Source of the DNA: an uncultured bacterium | Lineage (GTDB): Bacteria > Patescibacteriota > Minisyncoccia > Phycocordibacterales > GWA1-40-21 | Assembly (NCBI GenBank): GCA_963716205.1 | Contig: OY970290.1 | Span: forward strand, 584,823-648,822 | DNA length: 64,000 nt | Reading direction: 5' to 3' | In this document: positions 19,019-44,388 of the stretch, piece after piece | Numbering within the stretch: position 1 is the first letter of the stretch | Layout: each line of letters opens with the position of its first letter | Position numbers and translations under genes: made by a program | The notes under the pieces: model-generated | What the model saw: the letters and a program-made list of their open reading frames with translations, nothing else | Told to the model about the DNA's origin: nothing | The model's database searches: none

Positions 19019-20740
19019 TCAGAGCTGATTGACTTCTTCAAACGGGATGATTTTCTGCATCGCTTTGATGATAGCGTCTTCTTTCATAGTGATCAAGCCA
19101 TTTTTTCTCGCAATTTTATAGACTTCGGATTCTGATGGATTTTTCAAAATGGCGTCTTCTATTTCATGGCTCATTTTGAACATTTCAAAAACAGCGATTC
19201 TTCCTTTTGTGCCAGTCGGGCATTGTGGTGTCGATTCTTTTTCAAAAAATTGAGTTGCTGTGGGAATTTCATTTCTGAATTGATCCGGCAGATCCGCAAA
19301 TTCCTTGTCAATCATTTTCGTGACGCTTTCCGTCGTCATATCGAGTGGTTTCCCTGTGTCGGGGCACAGCTGATTGACCAAGCGCTGCGCCACGGCGAGT
19401 ACAAGCGTCGGTCCGATAAGATACGGATCGACGCCCATATCGATCAGTCGCGGAACAACGCCGCATGCGTTATTGGTGTGAATGGTCGAGAGCACCAAGT
19501 GTCCGGTCAATGCCGCTTGCACGGCAAGCCCCGCGGTTTCTTTGTCTCTGATTTCACCAACCATGATGATGTTAGGATCTTGTCGCAGTGTTGTGCGAAG
19601 TCCGTTTGCAAAATCATATCCGATTTCCGGAAAAACCTGCGATTGGCTCACTCCGGCAATACTGTATTCAATCGGGTCTTCCAAACTCAAAATGTTTTTG
19701 TGATCTTTGTCCATTTCCTGAAGCATCGAATACAGCGTTGTTGACTTTCCGCTTCCGGTCGGACCGGAAATCAATATCAAACCATACGGTCTCGCCATCG
19801 CTTCGCGGACCATTTTCAAATAGCGGTCGGAAAAACCCATTTGATCAAGCGACTTGACGCCACGTTCCTGATCAAGAATTCTCATAACGACTTTTTCGCC
19901 GTTGTTGGTCGGAAATGTCGAGACGCGAAAATCTATTTTTCTACCGTCAATAACGGCGCCGATGCGTCCGTCTTGCGGCCTTCGCTTTTCATCAAGGCGC
20001 ATATTGGCAAGAATTTTGATACGTGCGACAACAGCTTGCTGGACTTCAAGCGGTAGGACGAGACTGGTGTTGAGAACGCCATCCACGCGAAATCTCACGC
20101 GGACTTTGTCCGTCATCGGTTCAATATGGATATCCGATGCGTTTCCTTCGATGGCGTATCGCATGATGGTGGCGACAATTTTCGTCACCGGAGCATCCTC
20201 GACGATTTTCGTCTGATCCTGACCTTCATCTTTTTGATTCTTGATGATGCTGACACCTTTGACATCGGCGGAAAGCTCGACATCGAGATCGGTCAGGGCC
20301 TTTTTCACTTCGCCGCCAAGCCCGCGATAGCTTTCAATGACTTTTTGGAAATCTTTCTGTAGAATAATGAACAGCTTATAGGGAAGATTCAGTTTTTCAA
20401 CAATAAAGCTGATGGCATCCCTCGCCTCGATATTTTCCGGATCAGTGATACCGATTTCAAGCACGCCGTCTTCCAAAAAAAGCGGGACGAATCCGTAATG
20501 CGTGGCGGCATCCTCCGAAACATATTTCAAAATGGAAAAAGGCACTTGCTTGCCTTCCAGATTTTGCACGGGAAAATTGTAATATTCCCCTTCTGCATTC
20601 AAAATGGAATCGGCGGAAACTCCCTGGCTTTCCAAAACATCTTCTATTGTTTTCCCCGACGAAGCCGCCTGCTTTTCGATTTTTGCGGCATCACCTTTTC
20701 CGATTATCTTTTTATCCGATAATATTTGAAGAATATTCAT
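19019..20740 (-). CDS. pilB: type IV pilus assembly ATPase PilB (GspE family)
   Basis: 573 aa with an N-terminal GspE_N domain, Walker A GPTGSGKSTT and a tetracysteine motif. Confidence 0.85.
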   Translation of the reverse strand: MNILQILSDKKIIGKGDAAKIEKQAASSGKTIEDVLESQGVSADSILNAEGEYYNFPVQNLEGKQVPFSILKYVSEDAATHYGFVPLFLEDGVLEIGITDPENIEARDAISFIVEKLNLPYKLFIILQKDFQKVIESYRGLGGEVKKALTDLDVELSADVKGVSIIKNQKDEGQDQTKIVEDAPVTKIVATIMRYAIEGNASDIHIEPMTDKVRVRFRVDGVLNTSLVLPLEVQQAVVARIKILANMRLDEKRRPQDGRIGAVIDGRKIDFRVSTFPTNNGEKVVMRILDQERGVKSLDQMGFSDRYLKMVREAMARPYGLILISGPTGSGKSTTLYSMLQEMDKDHKNILSLEDPIEYSIAGVSQSQVFPEIGYDFANGLRTTLRQDPNIIMVGEIRDKETAGLAVQAALTGHLVLSTIHTNNACGVVPRLIDMGVDPYLIGPTLVLAVAQRLVNQLCPDTGKPLDMTTESVTKMIDKEFADLPDQFRNEIPTATQFFEKESTPQCPTGTKGRIAVFEMFKMSHEIEDAILKNPSESEVYKIARKNGLITMKEDAIIKAMQKIIPFEEVNQL

Positions 20741-28459: not shown

Positions 28460-28533
28460 GCGCGTGTAGCTCAGCTGGTCAGAGCGCGAAGCTTATACCT
28501 TCGTGGTCCCTGGTTCGAATCCAGGCACGCGCA
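28460..28533 (+). tRNA. tRNA-Ile (anticodon TAT/UAU)
   Basis: gcgcgtgtagctcagctggtcagagcgcgaagCTTATACcttcgtggtccctggTTCGAATccaggcacgcgca. It folds as a clean cloverleaf with U33, anticodon U34-A35-U36 and A37. Confidence 0.7.
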
Positions 28534-28556
28534 CAAAATAAAGGCTATTTTTCTAC

Positions 28557-31165: not shown

Positions 31166-31612
31166 ATGGCACCATTTGCTCAAAACAGAAAAGCACATTT
31201 CAACTATGAAATCCTTGAGAAAATCACGGCGGGCATTGAACTCGTCGGTTTTGAAGTCAAAGCGATCAAAGCCGGTCGCATCACGCTTGATGGCGCATAC
31301 GTCATTATCCGCGGCGGAGAAGCATTCCTTGTTGGCACGCAAGTTACGCCCATTCAGCCGAAAAATACTCCGAAAGATTTTGACGAGCGAAGAAATCGCA
31401 AACTTCTTTTGACCAAAAAAGAAATCCCGCGTCTCGCCGGCATGGAAAACAAACAAGGATTGACAATCATTCCACTTTCAGTGTATAATATTGGATACAA
31501 GCTCAAAGTCGAGCTTGGCATTGCCAGGGGCAAAAAGAAAAGCGACAAGCGCGAATCAATAAAATCTCGCGAGTCCGCCCGGGAAATGGACAGGACATTG
31601 AAAGGAAAATAA
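31166..31612 (+). CDS. smpB: SsrA-binding protein
   Basis: 148 aa, ...NRKAHFNYEILEKITAGIELVGFEVKAIKAG..., with a C-terminal basic tail. Confidence 0.85.
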   Translation: MAPFAQNRKAHFNYEILEKITAGIELVGFEVKAIKAGRITLDGAYVIIRGGEAFLVGTQVTPIQPKNTPKDFDERRNRKLLLTKKEIPRLAGMENKQGLTIIPLSVYNIGYKLKVELGIARGKKKSDKRESIKSRESAREMDRTLKGK

Positions 31613-31613
31613 T

Positions 31614-32017
31614 GGGGATGATCGGCCTAGACAATTGACCAATTATCCGTGCGGCAAAGTGGAGCAACCTTGTGAACTCCTAAATCTATCAAGGAAACTG
31701 TAAATGCTAAAAACATTTCTCAAAAAGTAGCGGGCGTTGCATCACCATTTATGGCGACCGTTCCTACTTTCGCTTACGCATTAGCCTAAGCGACATGTCA
31801 CCTGCTGACGTCTGATAGGTAGCGCGATGTGTAATATTTTCAGAATATATTTTATGAGTTCTCGGCGTAAAATGAAATTAGAGAATCGGATTATAAACAT
31901 TTTGTTTATTTCAAGTTTATAATCTTAAATTTGTCTTCGGACAAAAATAAATAAACTAGACTTTGTAGAAGCACTGCTAATAATCATTTGCACGGCGGTT
32001 CGATTCCGCCCATCTCC
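31614..32017 (+). ncRNA. ssrA: tmRNA (ssrA)
   Basis: Begins GGGGAUG and ends ...GGCGGUUCGAUUCCGCC-CAUCUCC-A. The 7-bp acceptor pairs 5' GGGGAUG with 3' CAUCUCC and includes the G3:U70 Ala identity pair. There is an internal ORF ...gct tac gca tta gcc TAA (...FAYALA*). It lies directly after smpB. Confidence 0.75.
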
Positions 32018-32912
32018 ACATACACGCTATTTGAGCCGCGCGATCGATAAAAGGCGACTCTATTCCTGCATATTCACTCGGTTCGAGTCGTGGACTTTCA
32101 GATCGTATACCATTCATTGTTTCGTCAATCAGCAAGAACGGTTTGAGCAATACAGCGCTTAGTTTTTTGTCCTTCAGTGTCCAGTTCGAGACAAAATACT
32201 CGACTATCTTTTTTTGGCTTATAAGGTCTCCTTTTTTAAACCACATCTTGGAATGATGGGCAAAAACAAAGATATTTTTTAGGGAGTCTTCCCAGTTTTC
32301 CTCTCGGCCTTTTGCCTTTTTCATCCACTTTAGGGCCTCGTCCCGTTCCGTTTCCAGTTTCTTTCTCCGGTCCAAATATTCCTTGTCGGTAATTAGTTCA
32401 CGAATTCTCATATCTGTAAGGACCTCTATAGATTTTTGGGCTTTGTCATGAACTCCTTCGAGGTTCCCCATCCTAACCTTAAGGGTTTCATTATCCGTTT
32501 GCCGAATACGTTCAATCCCTTGGCGCACCCAGAATACGAAGCGTTTCGGAATATGAATTCGTTCCAAGAAGTCAGCAATTTGAGCTTTTAGACTTGGAAG
32601 GGTGATCGAAGATTGAGAACACTTGTTCTTGCCCTTCTTATTTGTGCAGTGATAATAGGTGTAGGAACGAGTTTCACCAGTACCCTTGATGAGTTTTGTT
32701 TTTTCTTCCGCCGTAACCATGTAACCGCATTCCCCGCAACGAATGGTTCCCGTGAAAGCGAATTCGTGGGTCTTGGGGCGAGGCTTTCCTTCGCGCCCTA
32801 GAATTTCCTGCACCCAGTCAAATTCATCTTGCGAGACCAGGCGCTTATATTTATGGGGATATGCTTCCCCTTTTCTTTTCATAAGACCGCAATAGAATGG
32901 GTTTGTGAACAT
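31977..32912 (-). pseudogene. large serine recombinase remnant: C-terminal recombinase tail, zinc beta-ribbon and coiled coil only; no resolvase catalytic domain
   Basis: ...NPFYCGLMKRKGEAYPHKYKRLVSQDEFDWVQEIL... then IRCGECGYMVTAEEK...YTYYHCTNKKGKNKC (zinc ribbon) and a coiled coil. The ORF 3' end overlaps the tmRNA 3' end by about 40 nt (stop at 31977, tmRNA ends 32017). No in-frame catalytic domain exists upstream. Confidence 0.5.
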
Positions 32913-32926
32913 CTTATAACGATAAC

Positions 32927-33208
32927 GTGGGGAAAGAAAAGAAGAACGATTTGGTATATGAATATGATCTTCGATACATGCTATCAACCCGAGAAGGCAT
33001 GTTAGCCCGAGATTTGGCTGAAGGATTAAACGACAAAAAAAGTCTCCGTTTTTACTTCTCGATGGCCTTGGAACACTCAGAGAAATATTTGAGAGAAATC
33101 TACCGCAAGACCATGGAGACACCAGAACATAAGATTAAAAAATCTCGTGGAGCACTCTTTTCTTACCTCATAAAAAAGTATGAACACTTTGACACTATTG
33201 ACTATTGA
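32927..33208 (+). CDS. hypothetical protein
   Basis: 93 aa ORF. It occupies the position where the recombinase N-terminus would be, on the other strand. Confidence 0.25.
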   Translation: MGKEKKNDLVYEYDLRYMLSTREGMLARDLAEGLNDKKSLRFYFSMALEHSEKYLREIYRKTMETPEHKIKKSRGALFSYLIKKYEHFDTIDY

Positions 33209-35862: not shown

Positions 35863-36098
35863 ATTCCACTAGAAACCTTCGTAAATGAATAAATGAAACT
35901 CGATGTTCCATCTTCATTTTCCAATTCTTGATTGGGTGAACCGAGTAGCTCCACTACATCTTCCTTAGTACTTACACCTTTTTTGATTTGTGAATACGCA
36001 CTTTGGTCGATCTGATGGCCCAAAGTAGTTACGCACCCCGTTATAAGACTGCTTGCAAAAGAAAAAATTAGCGAACACAGAATAAATCTCCGTAACAT
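35730..36098 (-). CDS. lipoprotein, SmpA/OmlA (BamE)-like domain with Gly-rich tail
   Basis: MLRRFILCSLIFSFASSLITGC lipobox, then ...SKEDVVELLGSPN... Confidence 0.4.
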   Translation of the reverse strand: MLRRFILCSLIFSFASSLITGCVTTLGHQIDQSAYSQIKKGVSTKEDVVELLGSPNQELENEDGTSSFIYSFTKVSSGIYGIGSGVDTQSATIKFNSKGIVISKSKQIGDTGGTGVGGGGVK

Positions 36099-36258
36099 TA
36101 TTCGTCTCCTTTTCGAAGTTATATAAACCAAAGTTCTCAATTAAGAACCTTCAAGGACAAAAAGGGGCCTAAATATGTTCTTTTTTGAGAACCTTAATAT
36201 AGCAATAAAGTTCTTAGTTGAGAACGTTTATTTTCGTATTGATTTTAATAATGGGGGC

Positions 36259-36465
36259 ATGTCAATACATGCGAAACGAGTCTCGAAAAACCTGAGGAAA
36301 ATGATTGTTGATAGTGGTATGAGCGCAGAAAAAATTGCTCAAGGGGCAGGCATTTCTAAATCACAGATTTCCTACTACTTGAATAGCACTCGAACACCTA
36401 CCATTCAAACCTTAGAGAAAATATCGGATTTCCTGAAGCGGGATTTTCAGGATTTTTTCAGATAA
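36259..36465 (+). CDS. XRE-family helix-turn-helix transcriptional regulator
   Basis: MSAEKIAQGAGISKSQISYYLNSTRTPTIQTLEKISDFL, an HTH_3 pattern. It is convergent with the restriction-modification operon. Confidence 0.5.
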   Translation: MSIHAKRVSKNLRKMIVDSGMSAEKIAQGAGISKSQISYYLNSTRTPTIQTLEKISDFLKRDFQDFFR

Positions 36466-36472
36466 TAGAAGT

Positions 36473-37429
36473 TCAGTGTTTCGAATATGGCCCTAAGAAT
36501 CGGGTTCCATTGAAGTGAATCATGTGGGAAGGATTTTCCGCAACCCATACTTCGGTTTCCCACGCAATCACGGAGAGGTATTTCGTCATTATTGATTTCG
36601 TCGGGAACGCAGTCACAAACACGAGTCCTGCCGTGCAGCCTGAAAACATTTTCTTGAGTTCTTCATGCCGCTTGGCATCCATCGGTCCATGACTTGTTAC
36701 CGACTCCACGAGGACCAGCCAGTTTTTATCAGGATAATAAATTACAACATCAGGCATTTTCCCGTGGGAATCAACAGTAACACCGAGCTTCGCCAATGAC
36801 TTTTCATCAAAAGATGCCCACTTCTTACCAGTATCACCCACATAGACAACTTGAGCGCCGGGGACGAAACGAGAACCAAACTCTTCCACGATAGCCTTGA
36901 TAAGCTGGCTATGTTCCCCAGGACTTAGTTTGATCTCATTACCAGGAGTAATCTTTAAGGCTACTTGTTTCAAATCACGTTCTGCCGCATATTTTTTCGC
37001 CAACTCTGTTTTTATCAAAAGGTATTCTTTAACCTTTTTACTCCACCGCGAAGTGCCGTAACTTTTTACTAACTCAAACGCTTCCGGGGAAATCTGATAT
37101 ACCGCTTTGGGGCTATTTACCGAACGTTCAGGTTCATCGGGGTTATACATAGCAAGTCCAGCTTGGACAAATTGATGGATAGTAAAACGACGAAATGTCT
37201 CTCTGCTGTTGGGAGCATATTTTTTTCCATATGCCTTCAAACTAAAGTCCATCATGGGCGTAATGCCCATGAGTGGCGTAGATGCGTCCTTCCACTCCGT
37301 AGTTTTCTTTAGATTGAGCAAAGCCAAAAGGCAAAGTGCCGACCGCTCATTTATCTGTTCTTTCGGCATTCCAACTTCAGTGAGGATCTTTAACGCATCT
37401 TCGATATGTTCGTGTTGTTTTTTGTTCAT
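36473..37429 (-). CDS. type II restriction endonuclease (PstI/BsuBI-family-like, inferred)
   Basis: 318 aa. Its start overlaps the stop of the upstream DNA methyltransferase by 4 nt (ATGA). The size and N-terminal wHTH-like region fit the BsuBI/PstI family. The assignment rests mainly on context. Confidence 0.45.
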   Translation of the reverse strand: MNKKQHEHIEDALKILTEVGMPKEQINERSALCLLALLNLKKTTEWKDASTPLMGITPMMDFSLKAYGKKYAPNSRETFRRFTIHQFVQAGLAMYNPDEPERSVNSPKAVYQISPEAFELVKSYGTSRWSKKVKEYLLIKTELAKKYAAERDLKQVALKITPGNEIKLSPGEHSQLIKAIVEEFGSRFVPGAQVVYVGDTGKKWASFDEKSLAKLGVTVDSHGKMPDVVIYYPDKNWLVLVESVTSHGPMDAKRHEELKKMFSGCTAGLVFVTAFPTKSIMTKYLSVIAWETEVWVAENPSHMIHFNGTRFLGPYSKH

Positions 37430-38904
37430 TGGATTGATTTTACCATTTTATCAACATCTCCCTGATTAGCAGTTCTATTCGATTTTGCCATTTTGCCGAG
37501 AACTCTGAGCGCTTCAATCGGTGGATATTTCAAAGAGCGAAGATCGGTCGCATTTACTTGCGTATGTCCGTTGAATTCCCTGAAATATTTGTCAACACCA
37601 GATGAGTTCAAATACATCGTTAGACCCCGCGCTACATTTTCTTCAAGGCCTGTTTTCTTAATGTGAAAAACATTTAGATGGTTTTCAAAACCAAGTCTTT
37701 TGGCTTTAATTTCTTTGGGCGAAAGAAGAGCTGCGCTTATACGCTTTTTCTCCTCTTTGGAAGAAAACCTTTTTACCAAAACATAAAACCCTTTTGGAAA
37801 AAGCATTTTTTTCGTTTCATCGTCTAGTGAGATGGCATTAGATTTTCGGATCTCTTTTTTGGGCCATTTCACTGAGTTACCATCAAAGTGCGCTGGATAC
37901 AATAGTGGAGCATCACCTTTTAAAGGCATTTTGTGAAGATTGTCTTTTATACGAAAATCAACCACCGGCCCCGTCGATACTTCTATACCAATTTCTTTGA
38001 GACTACATTTGTCAGTATTCGAGTTTTCCAATGAATTCTTTTTGATTTCAGTAGGAATATGGATGAACGATTCCTCATCCAACGGATTAAGGATTTGTCC
38101 AATATCACATTTGAATTGTTTCAAGTCTGAAAATGAAGAGTCGGAAGATATTGAAATTAAAACTTCTTTTGAAATCCGTCCTTTAACCAAATGGAAAATA
38201 ACGTTTTCTTGAAGAACTCCGTCATCCTTGAATGCCCGTTTCCTTGAATCAAATAAATGAATAGTTTTAATCGCCGTTTTCTTAAGTAAAGATTTTCGAA
38301 ACGATCTGTAGTAAGGGCCGTTGCAAAAACTTCGAGGAATGATAACTACTAATTCGCCACCTTTCGCCATTTTATTTACTGCCACTTCTACGAAGGCAGA
38401 ATAAAGATTCACTGTCTCTATTCCCATTGTTCGAAGCATTTCTCTATGTTCAGAATCACTGTGAATTTTCTTGTAAGGAGGGTTTAGGATCGCATGAGTA
38501 TAGTTTGGTGATTCTGATTTCCATGAATTTCTTACCGCATCAACAATGAAATCATCGTTGTAAATTCGATATTCAAAACGACCATTGGATTTGTTCTTTT
38601 GAAAACTGTTAAAATTATTTTTGAGATACGCCGCTAAGTCGTTGTCTATTTCAAATGCATCAACATATATTTTGGGCTTTAGTCTCTTAAGAGAACTCCA
38701 TCTTTCAAGAAAAGCGAATGTTAAGGAACCGATACCTGCACCCGCATCAAGTAATTTGATTTCCCTATTGGTAAACTTGGAAAAAAGTGACGCCATGAAT
38801 GCGCCCACAGGAGCAGGTGTCATAAACTGACCAAGTGCCGACTTTACCACCGGGTCAAGTGCCTTAGAAACCTCTTGCCTTTTTTGGTCAACTATTTGGA
38901 GCAT
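37426..38904 (-). CDS. N6-adenine DNA methyltransferase, gamma class (M.PstI/BsuBI/Eco57I-like)
   Basis: Motif I LDAGAGIGSLT precedes motif IV NPPY (AILNPPYKKI), and a large C-terminal target recognition domain follows. Confidence 0.75.
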   Translation of the reverse strand: MLQIVDQKRQEVSKALDPVVKSALGQFMTPAPVGAFMASLFSKFTNREIKLLDAGAGIGSLTFAFLERWSSLKRLKPKIYVDAFEIDNDLAAYLKNNFNSFQKNKSNGRFEYRIYNDDFIVDAVRNSWKSESPNYTHAILNPPYKKIHSDSEHREMLRTMGIETVNLYSAFVEVAVNKMAKGGELVVIIPRSFCNGPYYRSFRKSLLKKTAIKTIHLFDSRKRAFKDDGVLQENVIFHLVKGRISKEVLISISSDSSFSDLKQFKCDIGQILNPLDEESFIHIPTEIKKNSLENSNTDKCSLKEIGIEVSTGPVVDFRIKDNLHKMPLKGDAPLLYPAHFDGNSVKWPKKEIRKSNAISLDDETKKMLFPKGFYVLVKRFSSKEEKKRISAALLSPKEIKAKRLGFENHLNVFHIKKTGLEENVARGLTMYLNSSGVDKYFREFNGHTQVNATDLRSLKYPPIEALRVLGKMAKSNRTANQGDVDKMVKSIQ

Positions 38905-39114
38905 TTGTTCTCATTTTTCTTAATTCTAATAATCATTACTTTATGCAGTTACCACAAGCGCAGATTAAGTATACATCTGTTTACCAAAATTCAAAATCTC
39001 ATTTCCAGAAGACTGACTCGATAATCCGACTTCAAAAACTCTTTGAATTCTTTCATCTCTCCTAGCCCTTTATTTTAGGTAATATACAATATAAGTTATG
39101 GCAGACTATCGAAT

Positions 39115-40627
39115 ATGACGATTCCAAATTACATCACGCCAATCACGAAGATCCACTCTACTTTCAAAGAAGCCAAAGGTTTTTTTGATACGTATGGGGG
39201 TATATCGATCTTTGATGACGAGCCGAGACTCGATGTTGTAGCTCTCACGCAAGGAAAGCGCAATCTCGTGGTAGGCGAGCCCGGTGTCGGTAAAAGCCTG
39301 TTGCTTCAGGTCGTCAAAGAACATCTTGATCAAGAGAAATATGCCACTGCCATCATTAGCCTTCGTGATCCAGATGCAATTAAACAAATAGACGAATTTT
39401 TGAATTCTCCTTTCCAAACCCAAAAAACCTTACTACTTGATGCACTCGATGAAGTTAAGGCGAACTTATTTCCATCGCTACTCCAAAAAATCGAAGACAT
39501 TTCTGCTAAATATCCGGACATTTCGATTTTTCTCTCCTGTAGGTGGGTATTCATCAGTCGATATACAAATTCATTTCCCGCATTTCGCTTCATCACAATT
39601 TCTCCTTTTACCCGCAGACAAGTAAAAATGTATCTCATTGGGTCTCCAATTTTTTGGTGATCCAACAGTCATTGACGAATTGCCCGATCTCACTAATTCG
39701 GAAGAACTGATACTCACAAGCCAATATAAGCGGTGGGAAGAAGAACAATCCAAAACTGCATCAAATAACACGGAAGAAACTGCTGAAGAGCTTTTGAAAG
39801 AATTTCGTACTTTACTTGAACCCGAACCGGGAAAATTTAAAACTAATGTGTTTCAATTCTACAATAGACATTCGAATGAAATTACTTCACGACTTACAGA
39901 TAATGATCGCGAGCGAATTATAAATCTTCTTTCAAATACAGTTTTTAAATTCATGGACCCAGGCCAATACGGTATCACAATCACTTCAGAAAAAAACGGT
40001 TCACACACTTTCACCGTAGCTGACACGATACATATTTTTGGTGATGCAATCGTGACCGCGGAACACATCGGAATGAACATAACTCCCTTTCGACAACAAA
40101 TTCTCAATTTCATACCGTTTACATTTGGAGATAATCTGACCACCATCTTTAATTTGGTGAAAAACATTCGGCCCGAAGAAATGACACCCATTATTGAAGT
40201 TTATCGAAAACGTCATTCAGATTTGTGGCGGCATAACCCCCATAGTTTTGTTAAAGCTGTGGAGCAGTATCACATCTCAGAAGCCATACCTGTTTTGAAA
40301 ACCTTGATATTTGAATCAAAATGGGAAATGCAAGTTAGAAATGCCGCCTTACCAGTGATCGATTCCCTTGCACCAGATATAGATTTTCTTAGACAAGTCG
40401 TCGCAAGGTACAAAGATAGTACAGATAACGAAGAGAAAAAATTAGCAGACATCGCGAATGGTTTGCTCATTACTAACTATGCTGATGCTGACGCAGTGCA
40501 TTGGCGTTTAAAAAAAATCGTTGAGCGAGCAGCCGCCTTCATTAAGCCGAGAGGACCGCACGCGCATATGGTAGGCGGCTTGGAGGAAGAAATTTCATTT
40601 GGAAAGACATTTGCAAAACCGTTATAG
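39115..40627 (+). pseudogene. STAND/NACHT-like P-loop NTPase, split by a +1 frameshift in a T6 run (39650-39655) into a 181-aa NTPase part and a 329-aa C-terminal part
   Basis: Walker A VVGEPGVGKSLLL, Walker B LLLDALDEV, and a sensor-like SCR. ORF1 ends ...IGSPIFW*. ORF2 continues in the +1 frame from a TTG. Deleting one T fuses them into a protein of about 510 aa. Confidence 0.45.
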
Positions 40628-40815
40628 ATAATGCTGGAGCTAAAAACATGATCGGCATCAAAGAAGCTTTCCAAAACATAAAAGGTGTATGGGTTTTGTC
40701 GTTTAACTGCCACGATAGTGTGACAGCCCAAAAGAAGAAAAAGGTCCTAAAAACAAAAAAACGAGCTGACCATACCGGTCAGCGTAGAAAGAAGTAGCAT
40801 ATTCGAGTGTAGATA

Positions 40816-41325
40816 CTATCTTTCGTCCACTACTCGAAATTTTCTAGGTATATCAGATGGTCGTGCATATCGTTCGGAACGTGGACCATTTACGGTTTCA
40901 TCTAACGCCTTTGCGCCAGGTCTCGTTCCCCGTCTTTCAAGAGCGTTAATCTTTTTCGCTTGTTCCCTAATCCTGACGAACGAAAGATTTATCTCGATGT
41001 GCGTGCCTTTGTCATTCCTGCATGAATAGGAATCATAGATAAATTTCTTGTCAAAATACGGATATAAAATACGATAAATCACATGATGCAGAAGTCTGTC
41101 TCGCACGACCGCCTTGTGTATGCTTCTCGGTTTCGGATCGTTGATAGCAAATGCTTTATAGCCGGAATGAACGTATGTTTTGTTTTTCAAATCATCATGC
41201 AGACTTGCAATATTTTTTGAGAGTTGAAGCGCATATTCTGCCACATCATTTTTATATCGTTTGTCAGAAACAAATTCCCGCCATGCTTGGTGAATATTTG
41301 TCAGAGATATGATAGTATCGTACAT
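40816..41325 (-). pseudogene. DGR-type reverse transcriptase, N-terminal fragment (motifs 1-2 only; no YxDD)
   Basis: MYDTIISLTNIHQAWREFVSDKRYKNDVAEYALQLSKNIASLHDDLKNKTYVHSGYKAFAINDPKPRSIHKAVVRDRLLHHVIYRILYPYFDKKFIYDSYSCRNDKGTH follows the DGR/retron RT pattern (...FRDRVVHHAL...SYACRKGKGTH). After this point the ORF diverges and stops, and a terminator hairpin lies at 40758-40782. Confidence 0.6.
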
Positions 41326-41360
41326 GTTGGAAAAAATACTATACCACAAAAATACCATGA

Positions 41361-41732
41361 ATGTTGCCCCCCCCCCGCAAATCGCCAGTTGTCGTTGCAA
41401 AAGAAAAAGAAGCGTATCAATTTTGGCTTAGTCTCCACAGAAATTTTCCCAAGTCTGAACGCTTTGGTATCGGACAGAAAATAGAAAATACGTTTTTAGA
41501 CATTTTAGAATATAGCTTTGCATCAGTGTATCTGTCGCCGGAACCGAAAATTATCTTGCTCACAAAGACAATATCAAAACTAGATACCTTGAAATTCTTT
41601 GTTCAGCTTGCTTGGGAAAGTAAACTGATACCGGAAGAAAAATACATTGAATTTTCTGAAAAATTAGAGGAAATTGGAAAAATGCTCGGCGGATGGAAAC
41701 GCGGATTGCAACAAAAAACTCCCGCCAAATAG
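41361..41732 (+). CDS. avd: Avd-like four-helix-bundle protein (DGR accessory variability determinant)
   Basis: ...FPKSERFGIGQKIENTFLDILEYSFASVY... and ...KLDTLKFFVQLAWESKLIPEEKYIEFSEKLEEIGKMLGGW match the four-helix-bundle (23S rRNA IVS protein / bAvd) family. It sits between the TR and the RT gene on the opposite strand. A C10 run lies at 41367-41376, right after the start codon. Confidence 0.55.
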   Translation: MLPPPRKSPVVVAKEKEAYQFWLSLHRNFPKSERFGIGQKIENTFLDILEYSFASVYLSPEPKIILLTKTISKLDTLKFFVQLAWESKLIPEEKYIEFSEKLEEIGKMLGGWKRGLQQKTPAK

Positions 41733-41750
41733 ACGGGAGAAAATGAATGA

Positions 41751-41866
41751 GTTTCGGAACCACGATCCGATGCCTGTTCTCGGCATTCCAGACGTTGTCG
41801 TTCGACAAACGATTGACGTTCACGTTGAGCCCATCGGAGTTCACGTTCACGTTCGCCACGAAATTT
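41751..41866 (-). repeat. DGR template repeat (TR), 116 nt
   Basis: Near-identical to 42204-42319. On the minus (sense) strand it encodes NFVANVNVNSDGLNVNVNRLSNDNVWNAENRHRIVVPKL with 10 AAY Asn codons. Confidence 0.7.
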
Positions 41867-42199
41867 TGTGCAATGTTCCTCCTATTCCACCATCCGCCAA
41901 ACCATGACAGATTGTATCTTATGCGGGACCTCAAAGTCCTCTGAAATATTGCACCAACTTTATTTATTTTTATAAGATATCCGTATCATCCACTCTTTTA
42001 CAAGACGTATCCGGTAAAATTCTCAAACGATACAGACATGCAATTGCAGTCTCAAGCCGTAGCCGGAGACATCTAGAATTGCTTTTTCATTATATATGAA
42101 AAATAAAAAATTAAAATAAAAAACCCCTCGATCCTGCTTGCGCAAAATCGAAGGGTCAAAGTGTCCAAGTCCCAAAGGGACAAGAACGAAGTGTTGAAG

Positions 42200-42922
42200 T
42201 TACAGTTGCGGAACCACGACCCGAGGCCTGTACCCGGCATCCCAGACGTAGTCGTAAGACAAACGAAAGACGTGCACGTAGAGCCCATCGGAGTACACGT
42301 CCACGTCCGCCACGAAATAATCCTTCCCAACTTTGAAGAGGAAGAAAGTTCCGTAACCATCGGTACGAAGCCACTTGGCGTGCTTCTTGCAGAACTGCTT
42401 GATCTGGGCCTGAGTCAGACACAGACGATCGAGGTTTTCTCCAAAACTTCCGAAGATCGCCTTGAAGTCGCCGTCCTGCGTCATCTCAAACACGTGGGTT
42501 TTCACCCGCTTGGTCGCTTCAGCCGGAACATCAAGACCCCAGTTTTTGAAGTCGGAGTCGATATAATCGGGGAAAACGTCCTTGGCGTTCGCGATAGTTT
42601 CCGTGCCGTCTGTCGGATCAAGAACGGTGTCCTTGCCGAGAGAAATGCACGTGAGATGGCTGGTTTTGAGCTCGATGGATTCGGCAAAGAATTTTTCCAT
42701 CGCATCCTCGATCGCCGAATTGAGCTTGCCATCCGCTTGAATCCGCTGAACAGCCGATCTGTCGAGGGCTTTCGAAAACTTGCTAACCGCCCTCTTTACC
42801 CCTCTTCGTCCGGCTTTCTCGCCCCGACTCACGAGATCCTTCATCTGCTCGGATGTAATCAATGACTTAGCCATTGTTATCATCCTCCTTTTCTGAATTT
42901 TACTTCGCGTGGTTTTCACCAC
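42200..42922 (-). CDS. DGR target protein; VR at extreme C-terminus (CLec/FGE-like tail ...GYRPRVVVPQL)
   Basis: 240 aa. The last 38 aa (YFVADVDVYSDGLYVHVFRLSYDYVWDAGYRPRVVVPQL*) are encoded by the VR. Confidence 0.55.
   Translation of the reverse strand: MVKTTRSKIQKRRMITMAKSLITSEQMKDLVSRGEKAGRRGVKRAVSKFSKALDRSAVQRIQADGKLNSAIEDAMEKFFAESIELKTSHLTCISLGKDTVLDPTDGTETIANAKDVFPDYIDSDFKNWGLDVPAEATKRVKTHVFEMTQDGDFKAIFGSFGENLDRLCLTQAQIKQFCKKHAKWLRTDGYGTFFLFKVGKDYFVADVDVYSDGLYVHVFRLSYDYVWDAGYRPRVVVPQL
42204..42319 (-). repeat. DGR variable repeat (VR), 116 nt
   Basis: 17 mismatches against the TR. 16 of them lie at positions where the TR sense strand has A. Confidence 0.7.
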
Positions 42923-43271
42923 AGCTTTGAATTGACCTGTTGGATCAGCTCAAAGCTGTAGTGAAATACAACTGTTTTTAAGGTTCTTATCTACTTACAA
43001 TTGTACACCTTTTTAATATATCTGTCAAGAATAGCTATACTCCCTTAGAAATAAGCTAGATTTGGCTATGATACTACATATTTTTTCAGATCCGGAATAT
43101 AAATATACCTATTCTCTTCCTGAAAAATCGTACGGACTGCCATCACGGTGTCCCACATTAAAAAATAAACTCATATTCATAAATATGAGTTTATTTTTTT
43201 AAAATCTTGACACCAATATAATATATGTGTTAGTATTCTAACAAGTTGCTCTTACAAAAAAGGAGAACCGC

Positions 43272-43505
43272 ATGTCTATTCACACAGGTCAGCTCATCAA
43301 GACAACTGAAACACTTGGGGATTTGAAAAATGCCCATGTTGCAGAAAAACATATTCGAGCTCGCACACCGAATTGTTTTGGAACCGTATTTTCTGAACGG
43401 CCAAAGGAAAGGCTTGTCTATGTTAAACATGTAAACAAGCCTGATCTCGCCGTGTATGAACGCGGTGAATTATCTTCAGCCGAACAATTTTTGCAGGTTT
43501 CTTAA
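43272..43505 (+). CDS. hypothetical protein
   Basis: 77 aa. A TTGACA-17-TGnTAGTAT promoter-like element lies at about 43206-43240 and a terminator follows. Confidence 0.3.
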   Translation: MSIHTGQLIKTTETLGDLKNAHVAEKHIRARTPNCFGTVFSERPKERLVYVKHVNKPDLAVYERGELSSAEQFLQVS

Positions 43506-43519
43506 GAAATAAGCCCTGC

Positions 43520-43556
43520 AAAAAACCGCCCGACACAATGTCCGGCGGTTTTTTAT
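43520..43556 (+). terminator. Rho-independent terminator
   Basis: accgcccgaca-caat-gtccggcggt followed by a T-run. Confidence 0.55.
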
Positions 43557-43674
43557 TATATTTTTCATTACGTAAGGGAAAAATAAGAATATCCACAGCT
43601 ATTGACAATATTAATATAATGATATAAAATATAAATAAAGCTGTTCTTCGTAAATTTAAAAAACGAGGTGGAGT

Positions 43675-44388
43675 GTGAAAAACATTTTCATGCTGTTCCT
43701 GCTGACGTTTAGCGTTTTGTCCACCGGCTGCATTTATAGAGTGGTCTATGGACCAAGAGTCTATGACATTTATGGACAAGACACTCCTGCTGCCGCGAGA
43801 ATTCGTTTTTATCAGCAACATCCAGAATTTAAGGATGATGTGATAGATGATGGAATAACGGGCATTGTGCCGGGACCAAATGGCTGGATAATTAGTCATC
43901 ATAAAAAAGATGCTAGTCCTGCCGTTCCCCGTCCTCAAAGCTTAAAGCCTGCAGTTAAAGCTAGAGAATGGGTAAATGTTCCTGATGGATATTTTCAGCC
44001 GCCGCTCGATGGTCCAATTGAAATCAATTGGAAAAAAGGACTTCATGGCAAGGGAAACACCGGCTATGATTTGTTCGCCAAAAAAGGATCGCGTGTCAAA
44101 TCGTCGGCTGCCGGCAAAGTAATTGTTGCATCAACGGGATGGAATGATGGATCGGGATATTTGATCCGGATTTTACATCCGAATGGAACCATTACGGCTT
44201 ATTGCCACCTTTCCCAAATTGATGTTTGGAAAGGACAAGAAGTTTTCCAAGGACAAACCATAGGACTCTCTGGAAACAGCGGAAACGTAAGCAGTGATTG
44301 CGGTGGAGATGGATCTCACCTGCATTTTGCGGTTTACTATACGGAAAATCCAGCTCCAAAATGGGAGTCGCGTTACGCTTCTCGTTAA
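43675..44388 (+). CDS. M23-family peptidase lipoprotein
   Basis: Lipobox LSTGC, LytM motifs ...HxxxD... and SHLHFAV. Confidence 0.7.
   Translation: MKNIFMLFLLTFSVLSTGCIYRVVYGPRVYDIYGQDTPAAARIRFYQQHPEFKDDVIDDGITGIVPGPNGWIISHHKKDASPAVPRPQSLKPAVKAREWVNVPDGYFQPPLDGPIEINWKKGLHGKGNTGYDLFAKKGSRVKSSAAGKVIVASTGWNDGSGYLIRILHPNGTITAYCHLSQIDVWKGQEVFQGQTIGLSGNSGNVSSDCGGDGSHLHFAVYYTENPAPKWESRYASR

Follow-up and report, generated by a model that had tools for sequence, protein, structure and literature searches.

How does a DGR cassette whose VR has clearly been diversified come to carry a reverse transcriptase (RT) gene that stops after its first motifs? We addressed this question at a locus within a window of 64,000 nucleotides, the whole stretch of DNA that was analysed. 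Read along the minus strand, the cassette comprises the target gene with its VR, a hairpin, the TR, a second hairpin, avd (encoded on the plus strand) and the RT remnant, beyond which lies unrelated DNA and then an NTPase gene. The features referred to below are as follows.

42200 to 42922, minus strand: DGR target gene, a maximal ORF of 240 amino acids with the VR at its C-terminus
42204 to 42318, minus strand: VR, making up the final 38 codons of the target; it repeats the TR directly over 115 nt with 86% identity
42122 to 42157, minus strand: GC-rich hairpin and T-run 3' of the VR and the target stop
41750 to 41864, minus strand: TR, rich in AAC/AAT codons, with A at 30 of its 115 bases
41719 to 41739, minus strand: terminator-like hairpin after the TR, 8 bp (6 GC) and a T-run, sharing bases with the avd stop of the opposite strand
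41361 to 41732, plus strand: avd, encoding an intact bAvd-like accessory protein of 123 amino acids (Pfam bAvd, E=2.4e-15)
41367 to 41376, plus strand: poly-C(10) tract within avd, where it makes up codons 3-6 (MLPPPR...); the RT strand reads poly-G
41325 (ATG) to 40816, minus strand: RT ORF of 169 amino acids
40987 to 41325, minus strand: RT remnant, 113 codons with motifs 1, 2 and 2a (PKPRSIH, VRDRLLHH and DSYSCRNDKGTH)
40816 to 40986, minus strand: non-RT tail of the RT ORF, 56 codons and a stop, for which the homologue search was empty
40765 to 40783, minus strand: terminator-like hairpin 3' of the RT ORF, 8 bp (5 GC) followed by the T-run TCGTTTTTTT
40625 to 40815, no strand: rest of the filler, between the RT ORF stop and the NTPase breakpoint
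39115 to 40627, plus strand: what remains of an NTPase gene (NACHT/STAND type), split into ORFs of 181 and 329 amino acids

The original prediction held that the RT was truncated after motifs 1-2 with no YxDD, and that its ORF diverged, stopped at 40816 and was followed by a terminator hairpin. All of this was borne out. A clade profile HMM, built from 19 near-full-length relatives (273 positions) and run with all HMMER filters off, aligned the RT ORF over positions 4-119 of 273. The alignment ended with ...DSYSCRNDKGTHIEIN (KGTHIEIN) at about 40987, after motif 2a, and the 56 codons that follow are unrelated. In tblastn with five near-full-length relatives, matches covered 41334..40945/40987 and nothing else credible was found in the window. 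The hairpin is present at 40783..40765. Public data contain the same minus-strand gene call (40816..41325) as P0001, from a contig of 681,747 bp, and a 180-aa variant of it (P0121) from a Logan assembly.

Up to this point of divergence the sequence is that of a DGR RT. Over the first ~113 residues, identity with the RTs of Patescibacteria (CPR) DGRs was 60-75%; the best non-self match to the conserved N-terminus was 74% identical (among the best 120 database matches), and the best match in the species-representative genome collection 75% identical. The remnant also aligned with the bRT of Bordetella phage, over residues 10-119 of its 328 (PDB 8ub7, E=8e-13). Of 52 columns with 90% or more conservation among 83 relatives, it has kept 50; intact relatives miss a median of one. 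The retained portion, the first third of the enzyme, ends ahead of the first catalytic aspartate. In intact relatives the RT is a single ORF of ~325-340 aa with KCDIRKFFASIDH (motif 3), GLPLGNLTSQ (motif 4, with the DGR 'SQ'), YIRYADDF (motif 5), HPDKVFI and GVDFLG, and all of these are missing from the RT ORF. A product that lacks motifs 3-7 is incapable of cDNA polymerisation, so that the cassette cannot by itself diversify the target. The proposal that the cassette is non-autonomous or decaying is supported by the lack of motifs 3-7 in the window.

We looked for motifs 3-7 in alternate frames, using the profile, tblastn and shuffled sequences, and found nothing; by profile, tblastn and regular expression they gave no signal in any frame of the 64-kb window. 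When the clade profile was run on all stop-to-stop segments of the 64 kb in six frames, E exceeded 2 everywhere except at the RT remnant, and the motif-4 signature of the DGR clade ([I/L]GxxxSQ) was not found in the window by the profile search. Neither the motif 3 Asp nor the motif 5 YxDD of a catalytic RT was found in any frame of the 64 kb. The expression [YF]xDD matched only five times over the window, every time in a non-RT context.

Several candidate continuations were rejected. One candidate for the RT 3' part, a tblastn match at 19565-19741 (E=1e-4), falls on the strand opposite a PilB/GspE ATPase gene and was attributed to chance. Resumption of the RT at 40710-40640 ('AVKRQNPYTFYVLESFFDADH', motif-3-like) reached E=1.8 by tblastn in a 600-bp search space and -2 bits with the profile. 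A +1-frame continuation ('IFRSSGLGNKRKRLTLLKDGERDL') gave no profile alignment and a shuffle z of 1.55, with 77 of 1000 shuffles equally good. The stretch 'SDIPRKFRVVD' in the ORF tail, read as a degenerate motif 3, was unsupported by the profile. Database names raise the alternative of a group II intron or retron RT; an Rfam scan of 36000-44000 gave no intron or retron family, and the presence of the TR/VR pair and Avd argues for a DGR RT instead.

The original prediction had also offered an assembly artefact as an explanation, in which case the RT would be intact in the organism. The window does come from a metagenome-assembled contig, and there are homopolymers nearby. Against this, Logan contig L008 (run ERR11563597, 3,732 bp) corresponds to window positions 40621..44352 at 100% identity, so that two assemblies agree base for base over 3.7 kb, and its span covers the end of RT homology, the stop codon, avd, the TR and the VR. 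Because L008 is identical across the breakpoint, the truncation is not an assembler-specific chimera: it is real at the level of two assemblies, produced by different software and possibly resting on the same reads. About 200 RT codons are gone, which is beyond what homopolymer or indel error could remove, and no nearby frame holds RT sequence. We therefore consider an assembly or sequencing artefact very unlikely. Near-identical relatives were also sought in JGI metagenomes with 23-24-mers from the RT and the TR, with zero matches.

The VR has been diversified, as predicted. It differs from the TR at 16 positions, which affect 15 of the 30 TR adenines and one of the 85 other bases (Fisher p=9e-10); the sole non-A change is synonymous (TCG to TCT). 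Relatives with intact RTs have 9-27 A differences and usually 0-2 non-A differences in their TR/VR pairs, and since the counts found here lie within that range, the window pair is unremarkable. The 3' parts of the TR and VR share an identical GC-rich stretch, TCGTGGTTCCG, and diverge thereafter. From the TR end to the RT start there are 425 nt (380-460 nt in relatives), and no further VR was found in the 64-kb window. Public calls of the target gene begin at 42880 or 42871 (227 or 224 aa). The target protein had no Pfam or PDB sequence matches; homologous targets with 43-50% identity occupy the same position in the closest relatives (L011-L018).

Two of the hairpins lie next to these repeats. 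The one at 42122..42157 has 16 bp, lies ~45 nt past the VR and is terminator-like in looks; it could be a terminator, a post-IMH inverted repeat or both. The hairpin at 41719-41739 suggests a TR RNA transcribed separately as a short molecule; alternatively it could be the priming structure of B3-type DGRs.

The accessory gene is intact. avd is antisense to the TR and RT and lies between them, a placement conserved across the clade. Its product is 60-75% identical to that of Patescibacteria relatives and keeps every one of the 18 columns with 85% or more conservation among 80 relatives. The B3 architecture, TR-(avd)-RT with avd on the reverse strand, accounts for 90% of CPR DGRs (PMC5758913). 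The window cassette resembles the CPR B3 DGRs of Wu et al. 2018 (PMC5758913) in the order and strands of target/VR, TR, antisense avd and RT, in its TR of ~115 nt and TR-RT distance of ~425 nt, in the C-terminal VR and in the AAC-rich TR codons, and differs from them in that its RT is cut to the first 113 residues. With the DGR of Bordetella phage BPP-1 (mtd-avd-TR-brt; 8ub7) it shares the adenine-specific transfer from TR to VR, Avd and the RT N-terminus. Unlike BPP-1, it has avd on the opposite strand, between TR and RT, its RT is without every catalytic motif, and it resides in the chromosome of an ultra-small bacterium rather than in a phage.

We think it probable that the locus is a canonical CPR-type (B3) DGR that lost its RT recently, leaving the cassette now inert and the VR frozen. 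A recent deletion or rearrangement would have cut the RT gene down to its first third and joined it to unrelated DNA supplying a stop codon and terminator. The A-specific differences between TR and VR would date from mutagenic retrohoming at a time when the RT was intact, and the target would have been left with a frozen VR as a record of that earlier mutagenesis. The abrupt end of homology, next to an RT part and an avd that are undecayed, points to a recent structural event and not to slow erosion. Likewise, the conservation of the RT (50/52 columns) and Avd (18/18), together with 15 A against one non-A difference between TR and VR, indicates little or no drift after inactivation, and hence a recent event. 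What the sequence shows directly is the truncation, the lack of the missing part in the 64 kb, an undamaged target, TR and avd, and A-specific changes in the VR; a deletion as the cause, its recent date and the end of diversification are inferred.

The DNA beyond the RT breakpoint bears on how this happened. A plus-strand NTPase gene had been described as occupying the downstream DNA. It is indeed present, but as a deletion-riddled remnant, and ~360 bp of filler (40625..40986) separate its breakpoint from the RT remnant. Homologues of the NTPase are single proteins of 950-1140 aa, and the breakpoints in the window fall at 39644/5, ~39707/8 and 40624/5. Logan contig L010 (run ERR11523671) is identical to the window over 37964..39644; it then has ~1.7 kb that is missing from the window save a 79-bp piece, then matches 39695..40624, after which its ORF runs on in sequence that the window lacks. 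The three junctions show microhomologies of 2, 2 and 4 nt (TC, TA and GTTA). By this comparison with the sister haplotype L010, the window lineage has undergone at least three deletions within the NTPase gene. Homologues of the L010 protein did not lead to an intact ancestral NTPase/RT locus, the best match being just 52% identical.

The filler itself had no match in Pfam or Rfam, elsewhere in the window or among 90 related loci, and Pfam also returned nothing for the tail peptide and the filler ORF. It has stops in two of three frames as well as the terminator. A group I or II intron or other known RNA in the tail was rejected on the empty Rfam result and a fold no better than that of shuffles. 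In one simple scenario, a deletion would have joined the 5' third of the RT gene, with the frame preserved, to the end of a downstream gene that can no longer be recognised and that would have provided the terminator; a different event, such as an insertion with a later deletion, may also have taken place.

The filler could also be the end of an insertion, such as a mobile element or intron, that interrupted the RT gene without deleting it. The RT 3' part would then lie beyond the insertion or in a co-existing haplotype, and the NTPase join at 40624/5 would be a later deletion or mis-join. The ends of the contigs from ERR11563597 are of interest here. L008 stops at 40621, exactly at the third junction (filler/NTPase), so that the junction at 40624/5 is seen in one assembly only, and there is probably another haplotype to the left of the filler. 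A second contig of that run, L091, ends at 39672, exactly 30 nt beyond the last lineage-specific base, the stopping point expected of a k=31 unitig if an undeleted haplotype is also present. Both ends would thus fit co-existing deleted and undeleted haplotypes (k=31 unitig breaks). On the other side, Rfam gave no intron or other RNA family as a source of the filler in 36000-44000, and 40735-40990 is no more structured than shuffles (fold z-score -0.64). Terminal inverted repeats of at least 14 nt were not found, nor was a second copy in the window or in the 90 loci, and the stops and terminator of the filler would disrupt the RT regardless. An interrupted RT therefore seems quite improbable to us, and loss of the RT 3' part by deletion is the reading that we retain.

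Further features upstream of the NTPase remnant (in window coordinates) give a picture of the neighbourhood.

31166 to 33122: smpB, then the tmRNA gene (31614-32019) and a serine recombinase
36175 to 38904: BsuBI/PstI-type restriction-modification system
about 36175 to 36465: small HTH controller-like ORF, called in L091
36473 to 37429: endonuclease of the BsuBI/PstI-type system
37426 to 38904: Eco57I-like N6 methylase, part of the same system

The large serine recombinase ORF directly abuts the tmRNA gene and consists of the recombinase/Zn-ribbon part only, without the resolvase catalytic domain; this resembles the margin of a decayed element that had inserted at ssrA. No second copy of the ssrA 3' end in direct orientation, and no attachment-site repeat, was found that would mark the limits of an island. 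The restriction-modification system and the truncated recombinase look like a decaying integrated island. The NTPase deletions and the truncated serine recombinase indicate that this neighbourhood is losing DNA. Elsewhere in the window, ARAGORN called a tRNA-Ile with anticodon TAT at 28460-28534. Such a tRNA is uncommon in bacteria, where AUA is usually decoded by a lysidine-modified CAU tRNA.

Damage to the RT is not confined to this cassette. Among 80 species-representative loci of the clade, 74 have one intact RT ORF of ~330 aa, and in the other 6 (~7%) the RT is damaged by a stop, frameshift, deletion or insertion.

L019: in-frame stop
L005: deletion and frameshift
L027: truncation
L054: motif 3 lost in frame
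L085: frameshift
L028: insertion

TR and VR could be recovered for two of these six (L005 and L028), and in both the differences are cleanly A-only. The RT of the window is the most severely damaged of the seven, although what happened to it is no different in kind. Schillinger et al. 2012 (DiGReF) described DGR RTs shortened by mutation with adenine exchanges still visible in the VR, and took a truncated RT with an A-diversified VR as a sign of very recent inactivation (PMC3521204). The window RT differs from theirs in that its 3' two-thirds are physically gone, with unrelated DNA in their place. A truncated DGR RT beside a diversified VR is thus an ordinary form of decay, documented already in 2012.

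Some further observations were made on the relatives. The split RT P0100 (159 + 123 aa; L005/L006/L007) recurs unchanged in dozens of samples and has A-only TR/VR differences. VRs of the same cassette are identical across samples or assemblies (L001/L002, L003/L004 and L005-L007), at loci with intact and with damaged RTs alike, which hints that such DGRs are seldom active or strongly selected. At one locus, L044, an additional piece of RT N-terminus, 34 residues long, lies 1.6 kb upstream of the intact RT.

Among the three causes named in the original prediction (an RT acting in trans, RT loss after diversification and an assembly artefact), RT loss is the best supported, because RT homology ends abruptly, avd, the TR and the target are undecayed, the neighbouring gene has suffered deletions and relatives have damaged RTs. 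An intact avd (in its 'ON' frame), TR and target are also just what would be expected if the RT were supplied in trans. The cassette would then be non-autonomous but active, its VR being diversified by a second, intact RT of the same clade encoded elsewhere in the genome. Along with the undecayed cassette and the avd start in frame with its poly-C tract, the presence of just one non-A mismatch between TR and VR is in line with this, and TR and RT need no co-transcription (PMC5758913). Two genomes of the clade do have two RT loci each, SKS1.bin110 (L047 and L071) and SJ72 (L033 and L088), but each of those cassettes owns an intact RT. Moreover, the contig of P0001 yielded no other protein among the best 120 matches to the RT N-terminus, and the 64 kb hold no RT with motifs 3-7 and no extra VR. 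The VR is also identical in both available assemblies, and L008 runs unbroken through it. We regard diversification in trans as unlikely. A more specific form of the idea, rather improbable in our view, is that the RT-less cassette is a working 'satellite' DGR, its Avd, TR RNA and target being served by an RT from another place in a strongly reducing genome of ~0.7 Mb, where one RT would drive several dispersed template/target modules. Recent loss of the RT, with the VR frozen since, remains our preferred reading of the locus.

The 5' end of avd holds a feature that is shared with the relatives. The C10 run at 41367-41376 is the only G/C run of at least 7 nt in the 64-kb window, and the avd start is in frame ('ON') with it. 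Nearly all cassettes of the clade have a poly-C/G (8-13 nt) or (CT/GA) repeat tract at this position. We counted tracts of poly-C/G of 8-13 nt, or of at least 7 (CT/GA) units, in 83 related loci and found 76 in windows of ~190 nt round the avd and RT starts, against 7 in the ~795 kb outside them. In every case the reading frame of Avd runs across the tract, as Pro-Pro-Pro. An open ATG lies upstream of the tract in 59 of 60 poly-C-bearing loci, and the frame of the upstream ATG relative to Avd is 0, +1 and +2 in 23, 21 and 16 loci, respectively. The occurrence of two repeat types at one position, together with the randomised frames, suggests that the tract may act as a contingency switch on Avd, through transcriptional slippage or slipped-strand phase variation. 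The few independent assemblies on hand agreed in tract length, and homopolymer miscalls are possible. Full-text literature searches, which did not extend to Paul et al. 2017, the key paper on CPR DGRs, found no DGR paper describing the avd tract.

These results have several implications for DGRs in CPR bacteria. An A-diversified VR is no proof of a currently active DGR. The locus gives a snapshot of gene loss in CPR, with an RT, an NTPase and a recombinase whittled down by what would be short-homology deletions. If complementation in trans were true, DGR modules could persist without an RT of their own. Finally, the hypermutable tract in avd suggests that phase variation or transcriptional slippage may control whether DGRs are active in CPR bacteria, and this could matter more than the RT truncation itself.
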